A stretch of DNA of 10,318 nt from UHGV virus genome UHGV-1824378, one strand, 5' to 3'. Of the stretch, positions 1 to 9,023 are shown one piece after another (within the stretch, counting starts at the first letter, position 1; each line of letters starts with the position of its first letter). The notes under the pieces were generated by a model. It was not told the origin of the DNA. It saw nothing but the letters and a program-made list of their open reading frames with translations, and ran no database searches. Source of the stretch: a virus. The translations under genes and the position numbers were made by a program.

Positions 1-1845
1 ACTAACAAGGCTGGTAAGTCTATTCAGTACCGTACCCGCGATCCTGAATCATGGACCTATACGCTTGATATGAACCAGTTTAACGGCCTTTCCCGTGAAT
101 TGACGGTAGAAGTATCGGCTAAGGGCTATAACAACTCAGAGAGCGCCCCAGCGCGTTTAGTGGCTATCAACCCACAACATAAGCCGATGAAAGGTTTTAG
201 TGCGCGTGGTGGCTTTAATACTGCGTTTGTTAGCTGGGCGGATGACGTAGAACATGACTATGCAGGGTCAATCATTCAGTATGCAACCGATAACACTTTC
301 TCCGATGCAAGGGCAGTGACTACCAATAGCGTTAGTCATACTTCCTTTGATTTGGCTGACGGTGATTATTATATCCGTGGTGCTCACTACGATATTTTCG
401 GTATGGGTGATGCTGTTTGGTCTGAACCGTATTTCATGCAAATGAAATCTACCATTAGCTGGGACGATCAGGACAAAGAAGCACTGGAAGACCTGATTGG
501 TTTACAAGATCGCTTAGATGAAACCATCGCGGATGCTATTGCTCAAGCTGGCGCTAATGCCGATGCTAAGATTGATGCAATGCATAAACAGATTACTACC
601 GAAACCGGAAAGACGGTCCAAGCCTCAGCCGATACTCTCAAGAGTCTGATTGCTACCAGTGAGCAAGCAAGCTCTACTAAGATTGATCAGGTTAAAGCTG
701 AACTGAAAGGCGATATTACGTCGGAAGTTAGCGCATCTGCTACTACGCTGAAACAAGCAATTGCTACCAGTGAGGCGGCAAGCGCAAGCAAGATTGATCA
801 AGTTCGGGTAGAAATGGATGGCAAGATTGCTGGTGTTAACCAAGAAGCGGACGTTAAGATCGATGCTTTGAAGGGAACCATTAACAGCAAATATAATCTG
901 GCAGTTAATGCAGATGGTCGTGTGGCTGGTATTCACATGAGCGCAACCAATGATCCGGCAGAACCGACGAGAATCATCTTTACGGCTGATAAAATTGCGG
1001 TAGCTCCACAAGACGGATCGGAAGTTTGCCCGTTTGGTATCGAAGGTAACAAGGTTTATCTCGATAATGCCATGATTCGCAATGCTGCAATCGGTACAGC
1101 CCAGATTAACGATGCGGCTATTACTACCGCTAAGATCGGCACAGCCCAGATTAACGGCGCTCACATCCAACACGCACAGATCGGAACAGGTCATATCATT
1201 GATGGCTCTATCGATAATGCTAAAATTGGTAACTATATCCAGTCTTATAACTGGAATGGTAACGATGGATGGTATATCGGCAAAGATGGCACTTGTCATT
1301 TTAGACACGCTAATATTCGTGGTCATTTGGTGGCTGATTCCGGCGAAATGAACAACGTAACGATTAATTCAAGTTGCCGCATTTTGGGTATGCTTGATGC
1401 TAATCAGGTGCGTGGTGACTTCGTGAAAGCTATTGGTCGTCGATTCCCACATTGGGACGAAAACCCATCATTGGGCTATCCCGGTTATCCGCAAGGTACA
1501 ATCACTGTTCGAATTGAAGATGATCACCCGTTTGATCGTCAGATTATCGTTCCGGCTATTAGCTTTGGTGGTCTTAATGCGCGTGAAGGCTCGAATAACA
1601 ATACTTACTATGATAACTGTCGCTTGATTGTTCGCAAGAACGGTGCTGAATTATATAACCGTGCATATGGTAGACAGACTGGATTGTATAGTGCTGTTAT
1701 TGATATGCCAGCCGGACACGGACCAGTTACGCTAACTTTTGAAGTAAGTTCAAGCGCAATCAACAACTGGACTCCCAGCACATGGATCAGCGATCTAACG
1801 GTAATGGTAACTAAGAAAGCCGCTACGGGTATTTCTGTTTCTTAA
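1..1845 (+). CDS. Tail fiber / tail-tip host-specificity protein, C-terminal portion (5'-truncated by window edge)
   Basis: Frame 1 is open from nt 1 with no stop in 1-69, so track ORF 70..1845 is the 3' part of a longer gene. Product has an FN3-like segment (FNTAFVSWADD...YYIRGAHYDIF), about three 37-aa coiled-coil-like tandem units (KID...TLK..IATSE) and 15-aa beta-helix-like repeats (IGTAQINDAAITTAK / IGTAQINGAHIQHAQ / IGTGHIIDGSIDNAK), an architecture typical of phage tail fibers or gpJ-like central fibers. Terminator follows. Family assignment is by recollection, not search. Confidence 0.7.
   Translation, partial: TNKAGKSIQYRTRDPESWTYTLDMNQFNGLSRELTVEVSAKGYNNSESAPARLVAINPQHKPMKGFSARGGFNTAFVSWADDVEHDYAGSIIQYATDNTFSDARAVTTNSVSHTSFDLADGDYYIRGAHYDIFGMGDAVWSEPYFMQMKSTISWDDQDKEALEDLIGLQDRLDETIADAIAQAGANADAKIDAMHKQITTETGKTVQASADTLKSLIATSEQASSTKIDQVKAELKGDITSEVSASATTLKQAIATSEAASASKIDQVRVEMDGKIAGVNQEADVKIDALKGTINSKYNLAVNADGRVAGIHMSATNDPAEPTRIIFTADKIAVAPQDGSEVCPFGIEGNKVYLDNAMIRNAAIGTAQINDAAITTAKIGTAQINGAHIQHAQIGTGHIIDGSIDNAKIGNYIQSYNWNGNDGWYIGKDGTCHFRHANIRGHLVADSGEMNNVTINSSCRILGMLDANQVRGDFVKAIGRRFPHWDENPSLGYPGYPQGTITVRIEDDHPFDRQIIVPAISFGGLNAREGSNNNTYYDNCRLIVRKNGAELYNRAYGRQTGLYSAVIDMPAGHGPVTLTFEVSSSAINNWTPSTWISDLTVMVTKKAATGISVS
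568..900 (+). repeat. Imperfect tandem repeat inside tail-fiber gene, about 3 units of 111 bp (37 aa)
   Basis: Units begin with aagattgat at 568, 679 and 790 (period 111 nt). 15-nt identical core attgctaccagtgag at 649-663 and 760-774. Protein units KIDAMHKQITTETGKTVQASADTLKSL / KIDQVKAELKGDITSEVSASATTLKQA / KIDQVRVEMDGKIAGVNQEADVKIDALKGT. Confidence 0.6.
1090..1269 (+). repeat. 45-bp (15-aa) periodic repeats inside tail-fiber gene, beta-helix-like
   Basis: Near-identical 22-mers atcggtacagcccagattaacg (1090-1111) and atcggcacagcccagattaacg (1135-1156); further units start at 1180 and 1225 (atcggaacagg, attggtaac). Encodes IGTAQIN-type repeats. Confidence 0.6.
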
Positions 1846-3495: not shown

Positions 3496-3849
3496 ATGTT
3501 AAGTAAGCATTTTTCTCGCAAGGAATTTAAATGTAAATGCGGAAAATGTGATTATGATACAATCGACGCTGAATTACTGGTTATTCTTGAGGATGTACGC
3601 GAACACTTCGGGAAACCAGTGATTATTAACAGTGGGAACCGTTGCCCAACTCATAACAAGAATGTAGGCGGTGCAACCAACAGCTATCACGTTCGAGGTC
3701 GTGCGGCTGACATTGTGGTCAAGGGTGTCTCCCCTGATATTGTCCATGCTTATCTTGATGGGAAATATCCTACTCAATACGGCTTAGGCAAATATAAAAC
3801 CTTTACGCATATCGATTCCAGATCGAAAAAATCACGATGGAATGGATAA
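3496..3849 (+). CDS. Peptidase M15-family (M15_3 / DUF882-like) zinc peptidase, probable peptidoglycan-active hydrolase
   Basis: Motifs SGNRCPTHNKNVGG, SYHVRGRAADI and FTHID match the SG(Y/F)R...H...D...H zinc-ligand pattern of Peptidase_M15_3 as I recall it. SD aaggggg; terminator immediately downstream. Confidence 0.7.
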   Translation: MLSKHFSRKEFKCKCGKCDYDTIDAELLVILEDVREHFGKPVIINSGNRCPTHNKNVGGATNSYHVRGRAADIVVKGVSPDIVHAYLDGKYPTQYGLGKYKTFTHIDSRSKKSRWNG

Positions 3850-3855
3850 AATTAA

Positions 3856-3879
3856 AGCGCCTCTAGTGGGCGCTTTTTT
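3856..3879. terminator. Rho-independent terminator between convergent operons
   Basis: Stem agcgcc (3856-3861) / ggcgct (3869-3874), 7-nt loop, then T6 (3874-3879) on the plus strand. Sits between the plus-strand stop at 3849 and the minus-strand stop at 3881, so may act in both directions. Confidence 0.7.
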
Positions 3880-3880
3880 G

Positions 3881-5371
3881 TTATATAGCAATTGTTTTAG
3901 TTGCATATCTGAACTTGTCGGTTAGATAATATCGGATTCTCTCAAGTGCATGTTTTACCGCATAATTTTTATGCTTGACTTTTCCGTTACGACCGAATAT
4001 ACACAGATGATCGATAAGATCCCAGACCGTTGCAATATCCTTAGAACCATGTTTACGCAATGCACGACCGATACTCTGACGAACGATAGTTGATTCCTTC
4101 ACTGGATGACCGAAAATAACATGGTGCAAGTTCTTAATTGAAACACCAGTAGAGAATACACCATAAGACGCAACACAAATGATCCCTGTGTCACCCTCCG
4201 CCATTTTCTTAAATTCATCACGTTCTTCTGTCTTAACTCCACCGTCAATATAATAAACCTTGTCGTGTACCTTCTGTAACGCGTCATACATAAGTTTTCC
4301 ATGCTTAGTATTGCGGAACATAAGGAATACGTTTTCACCCTTCTTAGCGAGTTTTAGCGCCAAATTACAAGCAAACTTATTACGTCGTGGGTTAGACGTA
4401 ATATACTTGATCTCTTCCGCATATTCTCGCCCCTTAACCGCGCTACATTCCTCATCGGTATAACGAAGGAAAAGACAGTTAATTTTCAGTTTTGTCACCT
4501 GCCCTTCTTCCATCAGGCGGTCAATACTCACGATCTTAGAAATATCACCGAAAAGCCCGACATACTGCATTAAATGGCACTTTGATTCTTTCGGGGAACC
4601 AGTCATACCGATCTTAAACTGGCAATGATTCATTCCGTTAATGATATTGGTAATATTTTTGGCACTAGCCTTATGCGATTCATCAACTATCAACATTCCA
4701 TATTGTTTGAACCATTCAGGAGGCATCTTGCACGCTGATTGCCAGGTACTAACCGTGATTAACCTGTCTCCCGGATGTTTCCCGCTACCACTCATCATTG
4801 TATGAATTGCTTCATAAGGGAATAACCGATAATCGATGAAATCATCCCTCATTTGAACCACTAGCGATGTAGTCGGGACAATGATTAACACCTTTCCGGT
4901 GTAATGCTCTAAGTACCAACGAGACAGCATACAAGCAATCAATGACTTTCCGGCACTGGTAGGAAGAACCAGCATTCTACGGCGATTGTGGATACCCTGA
5001 AAGACTGCTTCACGCTGATACCAGTAAGGATTGATTTTATTGGAACCGGAATACACTTCTAAAGAGTCAATCCACGAATCAATCTGTTCTTTGGTTACAT
5101 CTTCCTTCTCAAGTAATCGCGGGTCAATCCAGACTGAATAGCCCATATTTTTAACGAAGACACCCAATGTTTTTAATAGTCCAATTGGTAGGGTATTTTC
5201 ATGCGTAAACAGTCTTATTCGTCCATCCCAGCCGGAATACTTGTAGCGGGGGCTAAACCTAGCCCCTTCAACCTCAAACGAGAAATAATCTCTTAATTCC
5301 ATTCCGATAGAAGGAGAGCAATCAACCTTAACGAAACTGTAATCTTGAAAATGAATTTTAATATCTTGCAT
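3881..5371 (-). CDS. uvsW: UvsW-type SF2 DNA helicase (T4 UvsW-like)
   Basis: Walker A LPTSAGKS, motif II DESH, motif III TGS, motif VI QSIGRALRKHG. N- and C-terminal regions resemble T4 UvsW as I recall it (MQDIKIHFQDYSFVKVDC..., ...VWDLID...). I place the start at ATG 5371 (SD ggag upstream, overlaps upstream stop as TAATG); the track ORF starts at GTG 5380. Confidence 0.88.
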   Translation of the reverse strand: MQDIKIHFQDYSFVKVDCSPSIGMELRDYFSFEVEGARFSPRYKYSGWDGRIRLFTHENTLPIGLLKTLGVFVKNMGYSVWIDPRLLEKEDVTKEQIDSWIDSLEVYSGSNKINPYWYQREAVFQGIHNRRRMLVLPTSAGKSLIACMLSRWYLEHYTGKVLIIVPTTSLVVQMRDDFIDYRLFPYEAIHTMMSGSGKHPGDRLITVSTWQSACKMPPEWFKQYGMLIVDESHKASAKNITNIINGMNHCQFKIGMTGSPKESKCHLMQYVGLFGDISKIVSIDRLMEEGQVTKLKINCLFLRYTDEECSAVKGREYAEEIKYITSNPRRNKFACNLALKLAKKGENVFLMFRNTKHGKLMYDALQKVHDKVYYIDGGVKTEERDEFKKMAEGDTGIICVASYGVFSTGVSIKNLHHVIFGHPVKESTIVRQSIGRALRKHGSKDIATVWDLIDHLCIFGRNGKVKHKNYAVKHALERIRYYLTDKFRYATKTIAI

Positions 5372-5940
5372 TAGTTCCACTCCACACTTGCAATATTCTT
5401 TATATTGTTTAGTGATTTATTGCAGTAGTGGAATGTTTCAGTTTTGCCGTATTCAATCCCGCCTATACCCACATCCAGTAATCTCTTTATTGCTCTTTCA
5501 GTGGCTAAAGCATGTTTCATTGATGGCATTTCACCAGCAAAGACAATATCAAAGTTATGACCGGGATTGCGTACACCCAGATTAACACGTCGCTTGATGA
5601 TTGACTTTGTAACACCAAATTTACCAATATCCCCTGATTTCATTACATAGAGATAAGGCACACCCGCTTTATATTGAAAGTAATCACTATTGAAGCAAAC
5701 ACATCGTTTACCTTCATTAAGCAGGTTAGTAGCTGATTTGTCGGCTCTATTACCGCATCGGGTACATGTTAGAGCAATTCTTGAATGAAGCCCTTTAAAC
5801 TCACCCAGAAAGCCATGAAAGACTAACGGTAAGTCCTTCTCTTTGATGTGAGTCAGAATGCGTTGTTCTAATGCCGATGGAGTTACAGCACGGGAGGATT
5901 TAGGAGTAAAAACAATATCTTTAGCCATTACTGGAATCAT
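5371..5940 (-). CDS. Zinc-ribbon + GIY-YIG-superfamily (T5orf172-type) nuclease-like protein, homing-endonuclease-like, 189 aa
   Basis: ATG at 5940 with SD gtgagg. CxxC...CxC cluster (CTRCGNRADKSATNLLNEGKRCVCF) followed by YLYVM...GKFGVTKS...RR...ERAIKR...GKTETF, which matches the T5orf172 / GIY-YIG-like signature as I recall it. Stop overlaps helicase start, implying translational coupling. Confidence 0.6.
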   Translation of the reverse strand: MIPVMAKDIVFTPKSSRAVTPSALEQRILTHIKEKDLPLVFHGFLGEFKGLHSRIALTCTRCGNRADKSATNLLNEGKRCVCFNSDYFQYKAGVPYLYVMKSGDIGKFGVTKSIIKRRVNLGVRNPGHNFDIVFAGEMPSMKHALATERAIKRLLDVGIGGIEYGKTETFHYCNKSLNNIKNIASVEWN

Positions 5941-6002
5941 ATAGACCTCACTTTTTTAACTTATAGGCATAACCTCAATATGGTTGGTTTGGGATTTAGG
6001 GT

Positions 6003-6035
6003 CGCGTATTATACACATTCAGATAGAGAATGCAA
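6003..6035 (-). promoter_or_regulatory. Candidate sigma70-type promoter for the nuclease-helicase operon
   Basis: Minus strand reads TTGCAT (6035-6030), 16-nt spacer, TATAAT (6013-6008), then ACGCG (6007-6003), about 65 nt upstream of ATG 5940. The TATAATACGCG 11-mer recurs at 9051-9061. Confidence 0.4.
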
Positions 6036-6055
6036 TAGTAAGACAATTTTCTCTA

Positions 6056-6062
6056 ATAAATA
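6056..6062 (+). promoter_or_regulatory. ATAAATA heptamer, candidate T4-type late promoter core
   Basis: aATAAATA at 6055-6062, 32 nt upstream of ATG 6095. Confidence 0.3.
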
Positions 6063-6094
6063 GTAGTGAGCTTATTATTTTAGAGGAAACTACT

Positions 6095-7270
6095 ATGAAA
6101 CTTGCTTACGCTGCCGAAATTCCTTTTGTTAAGAAAACTCGCGGTTTATCGCCGGAAGAGTACCAACAACGAATCATCGCTAAACTGGAACCTGCTTTCG
6201 TATTTGGTGGATTTATCCTACCGTGGAAGGGTAATCACACTTACTTTCGAATCTACAATTTAGATACACAAGAATATAAGGACTACAAATTACGCAAACT
6301 GGAAGATACTAACGGGGGTGAGTTATTCCAGACTGAAAAGGCTGTATGGTTGAAAATGGAATCTCGTTGTAATGAGAAGGGAAAGAAATTCCTCGGATGG
6401 CAAGGAGAATGGAAAGGGCGAAATAGAACGAAAGCCCGTGTTTTGTGCCCTGAACACAATCAAATCATGACGCCATCTCTATTACATGCTCTCAAGGATG
6501 ATTTTGATTTTGATTGTAAAATCTGTATGGCTGAAAAATCCCAACGGGTAAGAAGTGGCAAGACTTTTGATGAAGTTATTAAGGACAAAGAGACAATCAT
6601 CAATGCACGTTGCGAGAGTACGCCTTACACCTTCAAAGGATTCATCATAAACACCCCACACCTAAAGGATGTTAAATTTAAAACCTATTGCAAGTCACAT
6701 AACCACGAATGGGAATCTCATTTAAGATGTGCTGATTCTTTCACTTGTCCGCTTTGTATTAAAGACCAACTGGTGCAACTGTCTAACCGGACTTATCAGG
6801 GTAAGGCTAGTTTCTACATTCAATTATTAGATGACAAATTTATTAAATTTGGAATCACTACCCGAAAACCAGAAGAACGAATGAGAGAACAAACCAGAAA
6901 GAGCAACTTCACTCACCGCTTAATCTTTACTCATGAGTTTGAGGATGGTTGGAAAGCTGCCGATTTAGAGCATGAAGTAAAACAACGCTTCAAGACTCAT
7001 GCAGCACCCTACAAAGATTTCAAGGATGGATGGTCGGAAACTCTGACTATTGATGAGTTACCACACTTACAGCAACTGGTTTATGACTACCTAACCAATC
7101 AACCGGACGAGGCTAATATGTGGGTATCTCCGAAAGATGTATTTGATGACGATACATTCAAGCTACATACTCACTTCTACGGCATCAATAAACCGGAATT
7201 TTTCTGTATTGATGACGACAGTCCTGATTTAATGGATGAATACTTTAATACGCTCTTAGACGCTGCCTAA
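6095..7270 (+). CDS. Tandem zinc-finger + GIY-YIG-superfamily (T5orf172-type) nuclease-like protein, 391 aa
   Basis: ATG at 6095 with SD gaggaaa; the track ORF begins at an upstream TTG (5984) that I do not favour. Two Cys/His modules (CPEHN...CKIC; CKSHNHEWESHLRCADSFTCPLC) then FYIQLL...KFGITTRKPEERMRE...EHEVKQRFK...GWSETL, paralogous to the C-terminal half of the 5371-5940 protein. Confidence 0.65.
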   Translation: MKLAYAAEIPFVKKTRGLSPEEYQQRIIAKLEPAFVFGGFILPWKGNHTYFRIYNLDTQEYKDYKLRKLEDTNGGELFQTEKAVWLKMESRCNEKGKKFLGWQGEWKGRNRTKARVLCPEHNQIMTPSLLHALKDDFDFDCKICMAEKSQRVRSGKTFDEVIKDKETIINARCESTPYTFKGFIINTPHLKDVKFKTYCKSHNHEWESHLRCADSFTCPLCIKDQLVQLSNRTYQGKASFYIQLLDDKFIKFGITTRKPEERMREQTRKSNFTHRLIFTHEFEDGWKAADLEHEVKQRFKTHAAPYKDFKDGWSETLTIDELPHLQQLVYDYLTNQPDEANMWVSPKDVFDDDTFKLHTHFYGINKPEFFCIDDDSPDLMDEYFNTLLDAA

Positions 7271-7285
7271 CGCAATTAAATTCAA

Positions 7286-7307
7286 AAGGGGTACAGATGT
7301 ACCCCTT
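7286..7307. terminator. Bidirectional hairpin terminator between convergent genes
   Basis: Perfect palindrome aaggggtac-agat-gtacccctt (7286-7307). Minus strand has the U-tract (plus-strand ttcaaaa 7281-7287); plus strand has a weaker T-run after it. Confidence 0.6.
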
Positions 7308-7343
7308 AAAGTGTTTAGCTCGTTATACGTCGATTTAGGCCGC

Positions 7344-9023
7344 TTAAATTCCAAATTCCTGTAATGGACCTGGTATTTCCTCTTCTGGTTTCCAGTTCTT
7401 ATCTGTCAGCATGTCTAAACATGGATGCAAAACAAGCCCGTTACTTTCCAGAATCTGTCTATCATTGATAGTTTTCAAATCAATGAATATCCGGCCTTTC
7501 CTCGTTCCTCTTGAATTTTCTATTACAACTCTCTGGGTCTTTCCATCGATGTATTCCAGTACAAACAAGTTTTTGTTTCTGTCAATCCTGCTACACCCGA
7601 TCCGCTTTAGAGCTTGCTTAATCTTAAACCGGACCTTTAGTCGTTCCTCGTTGTAAACATCTTCTAAATCAAATTCTGCGAGCTTCTCCCAGCCTTGAGA
7701 GTCAACAGAATACATTTCCTCTTCTGCCATCTTGATCTGATTGTAGAGTGTTTCACGCTCGCTATTGAGGGTAGTAATCTGATCGGCTAGCTCCTTCGTT
7801 GCTCCTGTCATAGCAGAAAGGGCAATCAGGTTATCAATCTTGCGTGATATTTCATCAACCTGTACTTTCAACGCCGGAACCGGATTAGCCTTATCCTCAG
7901 CAATCCAGATTTTATCAGCCAGCAATTGCAATACAGCTTTCTCTAATTGATCCCCTCGAAAACTCCAGTTTGGATGCTCGCAATCAAGTCTACGTGAACG
8001 GGTCGCATCACATGTATAACGATACTGGTCAGAACGTTTGTTTGTTCCCTTCACTTTAACCATAGCGCAACCGCAATGATCACATTTCAATAGGCCAATG
8101 CCACTAAGCAGGGGGATCGGTTTAACTTCTTCCTTGTCTCCAAAGTTCCATGCTCTAGCACCAATATTTTTCTTAAGGTGATAGAACGTAGCATCATCAA
8201 TAACACGAGGGTAATAATCCTTTAACTCATAGTTAACACCATCAACAGAGACCTCCTTGATACCAATCAAAGCGCGGGTATGGAACAACCTTTCAACCAT
8301 TGCCCGTGACCATTTTGAATGCTTCTTGTTGCTTACTGCTGGTGGTGGTGCATATGTCTCGTTAAGGTGATCCAGTATTTCGGCGGTTGAACGTCCATTC
8401 TTCCGTAATTCCACAATCTCCTGAACAACAGGGAAGTATGTAGGATGAGGCAACACATAACCGGAAGTGGTATCAGTCCACCACATATTCTTTCCAACTT
8501 CCTCGATAGCCACTGCCGGATTTTGTGGATTTTCTTGATGAGCTTTAATCTTAATCAATGCGCTTGAGTTAGTACGATTGCGCTTAGTCTGACTTTCCTC
8601 ATTACCACGGATGAATAAAAGGATGGAGAACATCAGGTCCATCGGATTAGCGGTAACAGTATCCAGCGAGTAGATCTTGTTATCCATGCCAGTAACAATG
8701 GTTATTCCCCTACGGATGATTGAAAGGAATAACTCCTGCGCACTGACAATATCGGCACGGGATAAGCGGTCCAAGTTTTCAATGAATAGCCAGCTACCAA
8801 CAGGAACGGATCTACCAATTGCATCAAGGAAACGAGATAGCGCCCCTGTTTTAGAGTTAGCACCCTTAAACGCAGATACACCCAGATCCTGATAATCATT
8901 TACCAGTTCAAGGTCATACTTTGCCGCAACCTCTCTCGCCATCCTGATTTGTCGTTCATAACTCGAACCATCATTCTGACGCATAGACGAGAAGCGAATA
9001 TACGAATACAGTTTAGTTTTCAT
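7344..9023 (-). CDS. Large serine recombinase (serine integrase / resolvase superfamily), 559 aa
   Basis: N-terminal catalytic domain motifs YSYIRFSSMRQ (catalytic Ser), DLGVSAFKG and ENLDRLSR; Cys-rich zinc-ribbon (CDHCGCAMVKVKG...YTCDATRSRRLDCEHP); C-terminal coiled-coil. The size and domain order match large serine recombinases. Confidence 0.88.
   Translation of the reverse strand: MKTKLYSYIRFSSMRQNDGSSYERQIRMAREVAAKYDLELVNDYQDLGVSAFKGANSKTGALSRFLDAIGRSVPVGSWLFIENLDRLSRADIVSAQELFLSIIRRGITIVTGMDNKIYSLDTVTANPMDLMFSILLFIRGNEESQTKRNRTNSSALIKIKAHQENPQNPAVAIEEVGKNMWWTDTTSGYVLPHPTYFPVVQEIVELRKNGRSTAEILDHLNETYAPPPAVSNKKHSKWSRAMVERLFHTRALIGIKEVSVDGVNYELKDYYPRVIDDATFYHLKKNIGARAWNFGDKEEVKPIPLLSGIGLLKCDHCGCAMVKVKGTNKRSDQYRYTCDATRSRRLDCEHPNWSFRGDQLEKAVLQLLADKIWIAEDKANPVPALKVQVDEISRKIDNLIALSAMTGATKELADQITTLNSERETLYNQIKMAEEEMYSVDSQGWEKLAEFDLEDVYNEERLKVRFKIKQALKRIGCSRIDRNKNLFVLEYIDGKTQRVVIENSRGTRKGRIFIDLKTINDRQILESNGLVLHPCLDMLTDKNWKPEEEIPGPLQEFGI

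Follow-up and report, generated by a model that had tools for sequence, protein, structure and literature searches.

The window considered here is a stretch of 10,318 nucleotides (nt) of the UHGV virus genome UHGV-1824378, and it is part of a temperate siphovirus-type prophage. In its middle two open reading frames (ORFs), A and B, diverge from a shared control region (the spacer), and behind ORF A, in the same orientation, lies a gene for a UvsW-type helicase. The initial annotation described A and B as two related genes combining zinc fingers with a T5orf172 (GIY-YIG-like) nuclease, and both ORFs are indeed present where it had placed them. Judged by profiles and motifs, A and B appear to be members of the already described CapR/T5orf172 homing endonuclease family, a branch of the GIY-YIG superfamily. 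To this recently described family they add two uncharacterised lineages, A being a minimal form of 189 amino acids (aa). The features of the locus are collected in Table 1, where L002-L016 are labels of the prophage and phage loci compared with the window.

Table 1. Features of the locus (positions in the window, for protein domains residues of the protein, for sister prophages positions in the respective locus)
Feature	Position	Strand	Remarks
Lambda-J-like tail tip gene	70-1845		
Small ORFs	between tail tip gene and endolysin		
M15 endolysin	3496-3849		
UvsW-type helicase gene	3881-5371	-	Pfam UvsW_N 1.7e-34, ResIII, Helicase_C
ORF A	5371..5940	-	189 aa
A, one CapR-type zinc-finger module (predicted)			ligands C59, C62, C80, C82
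A, T5orf172/GIY-YIG-like nuclease domain (predicted)	residues ~94-185		Y96, Y98, K107, G109, R117, E148, E168
Shared control region (spacer)	5941..6094		154 bp
Candidate sigma70 promoter TTGCAT-16-TATAAT	6035-6008	-	faces the A-helicase operon; found by eye, confirmed by pattern search
Portable B-slot cassette (late box, hairpin, Shine-Dalgarno sequence, ATG)	6047..6099	+	53 nt, before every B-slot allele, unrelated lineages included
T4-type late-promoter-like box AATAAATA	6055..6062	+	faces B; ATAAATA at 6056-6062; predicted late start 6068
RNA hairpin (predicted)	6060..6096	+	arms 6060-6067/6089-6096; 5' arm overlaps the late box
ORF B	6095..7270	+	391 aa
B, Cys-less CapR-like module (predicted)	residues ~1-72		
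B, two zinc CapR modules (predicted)			C118/H121/C141/C144 and C199/H202/C218/C221
B, T5orf172/MUG113 nuclease domain (predicted)	residues ~236-335		R262, E292, E315
B, acidic low-confidence tail	residues 336-391		
GC-rich hairpin terminator	7286..7307		from a terminator scan; between the converging B and recombinase genes
Large serine recombinase	7344-9023	-	
T4-like pieces in sister prophages	L009-L012 about 10100-11130; L007 1755-1922; L013 5428-5955; L002 6845-7285		

CapR is a zinc-finger DNA-binding domain common to the PLE repressor CapR and the putative T5orf172 homing endonucleases of phage ICP1 (Netter 2021, PMC8096241). In Pfam searches A matched CapR alone, and B matched CapR (in two stretches, 4.3e-10), MUG113 (7e-6) and T5orf172 (8.8e-4), all above the curated cut-offs; the CapR scores of the two proteins (25.0 and 40.1) exceed the gathering score of 24.2. 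PHROG 681, named 'endonuclease', is matched by both A and B (2.3e-43 and 1.4e-18). A C-terminal T5orf172 (PF10544) or MUG113 (PF13455) domain, which places a protein in the GIY-YIG superfamily, was found, and the GIY-YIG defence protein PD-T4-3 is among the fold matches; a profile search of B against the sequences of the PDB gave no match. In the annotation of RefSeq relatives A is a 'hypothetical protein' and B a 'GIY-YIG nuclease family protein'. The start of B is almost certainly the ATG at 6095 and not the TTG at 5984 of the mechanical call, because the ATG has a GAGGA Shine-Dalgarno sequence 7 nt upstream, PGAP places the start there in relatives, and every homologue conserves it. With this start B has 391 aa and the spacer covers 5941-6094, or 154 bp, in agreement with the 155 bp previously given for the intergenic region.

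The resemblance of A to B goes beyond chance and is an ancient, family-level homology at 19-33% identity. The nuclease domains are alike with an E value of 0.026 in BLASTP and 1.5e-5 in hhalign, and their alignment pairs KFGVT with KFGIT, R117 with R262, E148 with E292 and E168 with E315. The N-terminus of A is most similar to the first module of B (33% over 48 aa in BLASTP, E 1e-4; in hhalign 7e-8 for whole alignments and 6.8e-12 for trimmed domains), followed by modules 2 and 3 (hhalign E about 3e-5), which are themselves close to each other (4.9e-15); mismatched-domain controls in hhalign gave E values of 0.5-0.6. Accordingly, the region of about 100 aa at the N-terminus of B, which had been regarded as extra, exists, but it is better described as a CapR-like module without cysteines, so that B has three such modules, the first lacking zinc ligands. 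The signature motifs listed in the initial annotation are real and invariant in both families. Neither of the outcomes that would have spoken against a related nuclease pair, namely an unrelated non-nuclease fold or an insignificant similarity of A to B, was encountered. A recent tandem duplication was also considered for the two genes and is ruled out by the identity of 19-33% and by the different closest phage relatives (T5-like phages for A, Krischvirus for B).

The putative catalytic residues R117/E168 of A and R262/E315 of B are aligned to each other in the profile comparison and, like the zinc ligands, are invariant across homologues down to 38-42% identity; the check for a catalytic Arg and Glu in both proteins proposed earlier therefore had a positive result. 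Their position in the motif suggests that they are equivalent to the Arg and Glu of I-TevI and to E180 of Odn. Among close alleles dN/dS amounts to 0.08-0.16 for A and 0.04-0.15 for B, the allele pairs compared not being mutually independent. The invariant ligands and active-site residues, together with the low dN/dS, show that both genes are maintained by purifying selection. The idea of a nuclease and its antagonist (antitoxin), which the initial annotation had offered as one option, finds no support and is rejected, since both proteins keep their active-site motifs and both are under purifying selection. The same observations make it very improbable that A and B are decaying passengers, that is, inert remnants carried in with T4-like DNA. 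Such an explanation would agree with the deletions, the insertion sequence (IS) and the fragments of T4-like genes seen in sister loci; nonetheless 12 complete E. coli genomes, and Salmonella as well, have both frames uninterrupted, dN/dS is 0.04-0.16 and the motif residues do not vary.

The C-terminal part of the B family (window 7097-7270, B residues 335-391) is a conserved, acidic tail predicted with low confidence, which ends in short hydrophobic motifs: PDLMDEYFNTLLDAA in B and ELDLSPL(E/A)(D/T)L in three other B lineages (the B-slot alleles of L002, L007 and L013). It resembles a partner-binding peptide, possibly one for a sliding clamp.

The neighbouring helicase gene connects the locus with virulent phages. 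Its ATG and the stop codon of A share one base (TAATG, 5369-5373), and a GGAG Shine-Dalgarno sequence lies inside the end of A; on account of this arrangement A and the helicase gene look like one translationally coupled operon. At the nucleotide level the helicase gene matches uvsW of Krischvirus. When identity was profiled in bins of 50 nt against L004 and L009, the gene turned out to be a mosaic. Over 550 bp (4022-4571, minus strand) it agrees at 96-100% identity with uvsW of the virulent Krischvirus Whisky. This tract has sharp junctions, the rest of the gene being 58-76% identical to the same uvsW, and the 750 nt at the 5' end resemble instead the allele of the L009 prophage, mostly at 80-98% identity. 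The gene is thus a chimera of prophage-type and Krischvirus-type sequence, and the tract indicates that a temperate prophage and a T4-like phage have recombined at 4022-4571 very recently. Two Krischviruses differ from each other in uvsW by a similar mosaic. At the same locus sister prophages carry a full uvsY and fragments of the gp51/gp27 junction, 96-99% identical to Krischvirus. A piece of uvsY also occurs there, as do 508 nt from the 5' end of inh, which are 92% identical to RB49. All these T4-like pieces can be traced to one neighbourhood of the Krischvirus genome, comprising hoc, inh, uvsW, uvsY, 25, 26, 51 and 27. The Whisky-like tract and the pieces in the sister prophages, coming from a single neighbourhood, argue that the locus has recombined with virulent T4-like phages repeatedly and recently. 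A and B are situated at the edge of this T4-like block.

The last 22 codons of A (ETFHYCNKSLNNIKNIASVEWN, window 5371-5445) are identical in the window and in L009, where the alleles are otherwise 44% identical, and this conserved block runs on into the 5' end of the helicase gene, which is conserved as well. It may be a recombination boundary or a region constrained by translational coupling.

In prophages with nearly identical backbones the alleles of the two nuclease genes differ widely. Between the window and L009, whose backbone is 96% identical, the recombinase agrees in 98% of amino acids (96.3% nt) and the endolysin in 99% (95.8% nt), with the spacer at 82.7% nt identity and the helicase at 84% aa; A agrees in only 44% aa (58.6% nt) and B in 28% aa (49.3% nt). 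L007 has an A that is 94% identical and a B that has been swapped independently for a relative of 337 aa with 29% identity. L002 carries another B lineage of 332 aa and is without A and the helicase gene. Altogether at least four lineages occupy the B slot, most pairs of them less than 30% identical (24-35%), and its conserved right boundary is the terminator at 7286..7307, which is kept in L002 and L003 with the sequence to its left diverging. In the Salmonella relative L015 an A-type T5orf172 gene of 197 aa, which shares 35% identity with A, replaces the body of the helicase gene (4717-5310), of which about the first 66 nt alone remain (5803-5868). In L006 (E. coli 06-00048, prophage in codB) an IS3 element removes all but the last 138 codons of the B allele (3835-5438). 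Four genomes appear to have the helicase gene only. In them the final ~108 nt of A, a piece of the spacer and codons 1-7 of B are still present, and they are therefore to be understood as products of two microhomology deletions and not as empty sites; L003, one such allele considered as an empty target site, was rejected on this ground. Salmonella prophages, with a backbone only 70-77% identical, have the helicase gene, A and B in the same order. The comparison with phage relatives at this locus, which had been suggested earlier, has therefore revealed variable presence and allele replacement beside a conserved gene, as is typical of homing endonuclease genes (HEGs), as well as homologues in known HEG slots.

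The control region is conserved to a higher degree between the window and L009 than either of the genes it separates. Among 5426 complete E. coli genomes 27 contain the spacer, in each case within the same prophage family, and ten further E. coli genomes have only the cassette part of it. Divergent transcription from this region by promoters of two types, as claimed at the outset, is consistent with its content: a candidate sigma70 promoter points toward A and a late-like box toward B. Regarding the former, a generic promoter scan of the spacer reported no sigma70 site at its threshold, the candidates falling below the threshold set per hexamer, but TTGCAT-16-TATAAT was found by eye. The window contains two occurrences of the pattern TTGnnn-16..18-TATAAT, 0.69 being expected, and both candidate hexamers lie within blocks conserved across loci. 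A weaker sigma70-like match facing B (TTGGTT-17-TATTAT, 5984-6012, plus strand) was noticed by eye only; its -10 element overlaps that of the leftward promoter, and transcripts starting from it would contain the hairpin at the start codon of B. A direct repeat, GGATTTAGG, is present at 5896-5904, inside the 5' end of A, and at 5992-6000 in the spacer, but with only two copies it may be due to chance.

For T4-type late promoters the published consensus, spanning -13 to -6, is TATAAATA; RB49-type phages have A or T at position -13, and Aeh1 has CTAAATA (PMC1524935). The late-like element ATAAATA facing B, noted from the outset, recurs in other loci: TAAATA is invariant in seven diverged loci, L013 has a perfect TATAAATA and the Salmonella loci L008 and L016 have CTAAATA, although the number of such heptamers in the window is that expected by chance. 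The element lies inside a conserved hairpin predicted to occlude the start codon, whose 3' arm covers the stretch after the Shine-Dalgarno sequence and the AU of the AUG of B. Folding predicts this hairpin for five loci, with dG from -7.9 to -11.3 kcal/mol and z-scores of -3.2, -4.0, -4.0, -4.4 and -1.1. In the alignment 92.9% of the cells pair, with one compensatory change from GC to AU and a shift of register in L013, and the shuffle control for covariation was weak (70/500). The whole predicted leader folds with z of -1.5 to -1.6, so only the local hairpin stands out. A transcript from the predicted late start, just past the 5' arm, would be without the hairpin and unstructured. A late promoter combined with a start-masking hairpin has been documented for I-TevI, I-TevII, I-TevIII, segB and mobE (Edgell 2010, PMC2988022), and B is predicted to follow the I-TevI, segB and mobE paradigm, in which the late start lies inside or after the 5' arm. 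In L002 and L013 the cassette of box, hairpin, Shine-Dalgarno sequence and ATG is 92% and 82% identical over its 53 nt, and the genes downstream of it are less than 30% and 38% identical to B. The cassette was also considered as a feature of the whole family, which is ruled out, since in Krischvirus the relatives of B either have an early-type promoter, TTGACA-17-TATAAT, or lie behind a terminator. When IMG/VR was scanned with the 14-mer ATAAATAGTAGTGA, over 120 unrelated contigs matched; in so large and AT-rich a collection these matches are due to chance and carry no information.

The conservation of the spacer is what would be expected of operators, and one may ask whether A, B or both are domesticated DNA-binding regulators, mainly sequence-specific repressors that bind the spacer and thereby regulate the helicase operon or themselves, with the nuclease lost or irrelevant. 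CapR modules are bona fide DNA-binding zinc fingers, the repressor CapR itself is derived from the T5orf172 HEG family (PMC8096241), and I-TevI is known to repress its own late promoter (PMC2988022). Nevertheless, this explanation is improbable, because both proteins keep a complete nuclease domain with Arg and Glu invariant across 40-60% divergence, unlike the CapR of PLE, and because the spacer has stayed conserved while the DNA-binding modules of B were replaced by unrelated lineages, which argues against a co-evolving pair of operator and repressor in the case of B. Autoregulation in addition to cleavage is possible.

Concerning the distribution of the locus, 16 of the 5426 complete E. coli genomes contain the 10 kb of the window with 91-98% identity and a coverage of 80% or more, and about 60 contain part of it. 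All copies of the prophage in these genomes are chromosomal; in the three genomes examined (3/3) the insertion is in ycdX beside the curli genes. Entries of the same prophage in IMG/VR are prophage contigs of 35-45 kb. The accessory region between the endolysin and the integrase, by the attachment site, is highly variable in this prophage family. No nucleotide match for the A/B region was obtained among ~50,700 phage records (5000-7600 by megablast, 5371-7343 by blastn), no plasmid match for it was found, and the GTDB set, with one genome per species, contained no relatives of A and B. The search of IMG/VR with A and B returned the same prophage and the known 28% Krischvirus relative only.

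Such a setting also brings to mind domesticated anti-phage nucleases. According to this explanation A, B or both would attack the DNA of superinfecting T4-like phages, or of competing prophages, at sites near uvsW/inh. The lysogen would thereby be protected or rivals kept out, and B would be switched on by the late transcription machinery of the invader. Mechanistically it overlaps with homing and differs in what is maintained by selection. The variable accessory slot between the lysis genes and the integrase, by the attachment site, speaks in its favour, as do the long persistence in prophages of E. coli and Salmonella at a dN/dS of 0.04-0.16, the hypervariable DNA-binding modules at a constant locus, the T4-type late box and start-codon hairpin before every B allele and the physical evidence that the locus recombines with infecting Krischviruses. 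There is also a precedent in Odn, a T5orf172 nuclease serving in a conflict of mobile elements (PMC8263062), and PD-T4-3 was mentioned above among the fold matches. On the other hand, neither A nor B matched any model of PADLOC-DB 2.0 at E <=0.01 (the helicase gave generic helicase matches only), four genomes have deleted both genes and others have lost A or the helicase gene, which means that the genes are dispensable, and T4-type late transcription of prophage DNA has to be assumed. On balance an anti-phage role of this kind is a serious possibility, yet an unlikely one.

Of the three functional options raised in the initial annotation, homing endonucleases are the best supported, owing to the family membership, the turnover of alleles, the deletion derivatives and a location on the border of the exchange with T4-like phages. 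We consider it probable that A and B are functional free-standing genes of the homing endonuclease type, whose activity and turnover shape the hot spot of exchange. The N-terminal CapR modules (one in A; one degenerate and two zinc-binding in B) would read a long DNA site, and the C-terminal GIY-YIG-like domain would cut nearby by means of the conserved Arg and Glu. Recombinational repair from the copy carrying the endonuclease would then copy the endonuclease gene together with neighbouring markers, and such copying could lead to the turnover of alleles and the mosaic boundaries around uvsW. A and the UvsW helicase would be made together from the sigma70-type promoter, and B would stand behind a T4-type late promoter placed inside the hairpin that masks its start. 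It is proposed that, because of this masking, read-through transcripts would be translated poorly and T4-like late transcripts would be translated.

Several points weigh against this picture of homing. Nuclease activity and cleavage, target sites, homing events and the use of either promoter are what we infer for A and B. At the nucleotide level A and B occur in no sequenced phage searched, the closest phage proteins being 24-30% identical, and because of this absence the movement of these particular genes between the prophage and T4-like phages is conjectural. The pair has been retained together with the helicase gene across E. coli and Salmonella prophages with backbones only about 70-77% identical and with low dN/dS, and a useful resident function would explain such long retention no less well than pure selfishness would. 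As to the control signals, the sigma70 match was made by eye after the scan had reported none, ATAAATA alone is at chance frequency in the window, the covariation of the hairpin consists of one compensatory pair in two possibly related loci, the longer leader folds with z only about -1.5 and the Krischvirus relatives of B have other promoter types.

A more far-reaching version, which is doubtful and is put forward as speculation, would make the locus a prophage-resident and infection-responsive outpost of the HEG pool of T4-like phages. In the lysogen B would not be translated; upon infection by a Krischvirus, the late sigma factor and clamp of that phage would turn it on. The invader would then be cut near uvsW/inh by A and/or B, and the resident uvsW, uvsY and inh DNA would provide homology for repair. 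The outcome would be restriction of the virulent phage together with gene flow in both directions between a myovirus and a siphovirus-type prophage.

The family itself is known; interest attaches rather to the occurrence in a prophage, to the fresh tract of Krischvirus DNA in uvsW and to the conserved cassette in the style of T4. The context is a concrete and datable exchange of DNA between virulent T4-like phages and a temperate prophage, with genes of the homing endonuclease type at its boundary. T5orf172 HEGs at boundaries of genetic exchange have been termed 'HEG islands' and were described in virulent phages (PMC10448857), and the present locus extends this idea across the divide between virulent and temperate phages. 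With natural plus, minus and swapped alleles in E. coli, it offers a tractable system which could be used to probe homing endonucleases of prophages as weapons triggered by infection, and which could show whether T4-type late promoters fire on prophage DNA.

Among known proteins, the closest phage relatives of A are 'putative homing endonucleases' of about 180 aa from T5-like phages (24-28% identity), and those of B are proteins of Krischvirus, i.e. RB49-like T4-type phages (27-30%). The latter reside in classical HEG slots, namely gp2/gp3, gp32/frd and, in phage Whisky, uvsW/uvsW.1; phage G5211 has another GIY-YIG gene directly upstream of uvsW, in the position and orientation of A. T4 itself has no T5orf172 genes (PMC10448857). 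In comparison to the seg genes of T4 and I-TevI (PMC2988022), which have a C-terminal helix-turn-helix and a zinc-finger linker, A and B carry their CapR zinc modules at the N-terminus, their nuclease is the T5orf172 variant with KFG(I/V)T in place of YIG, and their genome is a temperate siphovirus-type prophage.

The T5orf172 HEGs often contain one or several CapR, DUF723 or DUF4397 modules and evolve by duplication and shuffling of domains (Barth 2023, PMC10448857). Like the ICP1 HEGs gp121, gp130, gp165 and gp174 (PMC10448857, PMC8096241), A and B have the CapR module or modules first and the T5orf172 domain at the C-terminus, their modules are repeated or shuffled, and the genes are free-standing beside conserved replication or recombination genes, at boundaries of exchange. 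The ICP1 genes belong to virulent phages and a satellite, PMC10448857 making no mention of prophages or temperate phages, whereas A and B are a divergent, conserved pair in a temperate prophage. Further differences from the ICP1 genes are that A and B flank DNA in common with another, virulent phage family and that B carries T4-type late signals. Finally, the zinc pattern of B is C-x2-H...C-x2-C and not the published CxxC...CxC, and its first module is without ligands.

Two further systems concern conflicts between a virulent phage and another element. Odn (ICP1 Gp88) has a demonstrated T5orf172 nuclease activity, which needs the Glu equivalent to the catalytic Glu of I-TevI (PMC8263062). A and B share with it a T5orf172 domain with this Glu fused to a DNA-binding domain; in Odn, however, the DNA-binding part is RepA_N and not CapR, and Odn is encoded by the phage and directed against the PLE satellite. 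The CapR of PLE has in common with A and B a CapR domain with four ligands and an integrated element interacting with a virulent phage. A CapR domain without a nuclease domain, as in this repressor, was found in neither A nor B: PLE CapR aligns only with the N-terminal DNA-binding region of T5orf172 endonucleases (PMC8096241), whereas A and B keep the full nuclease domain.

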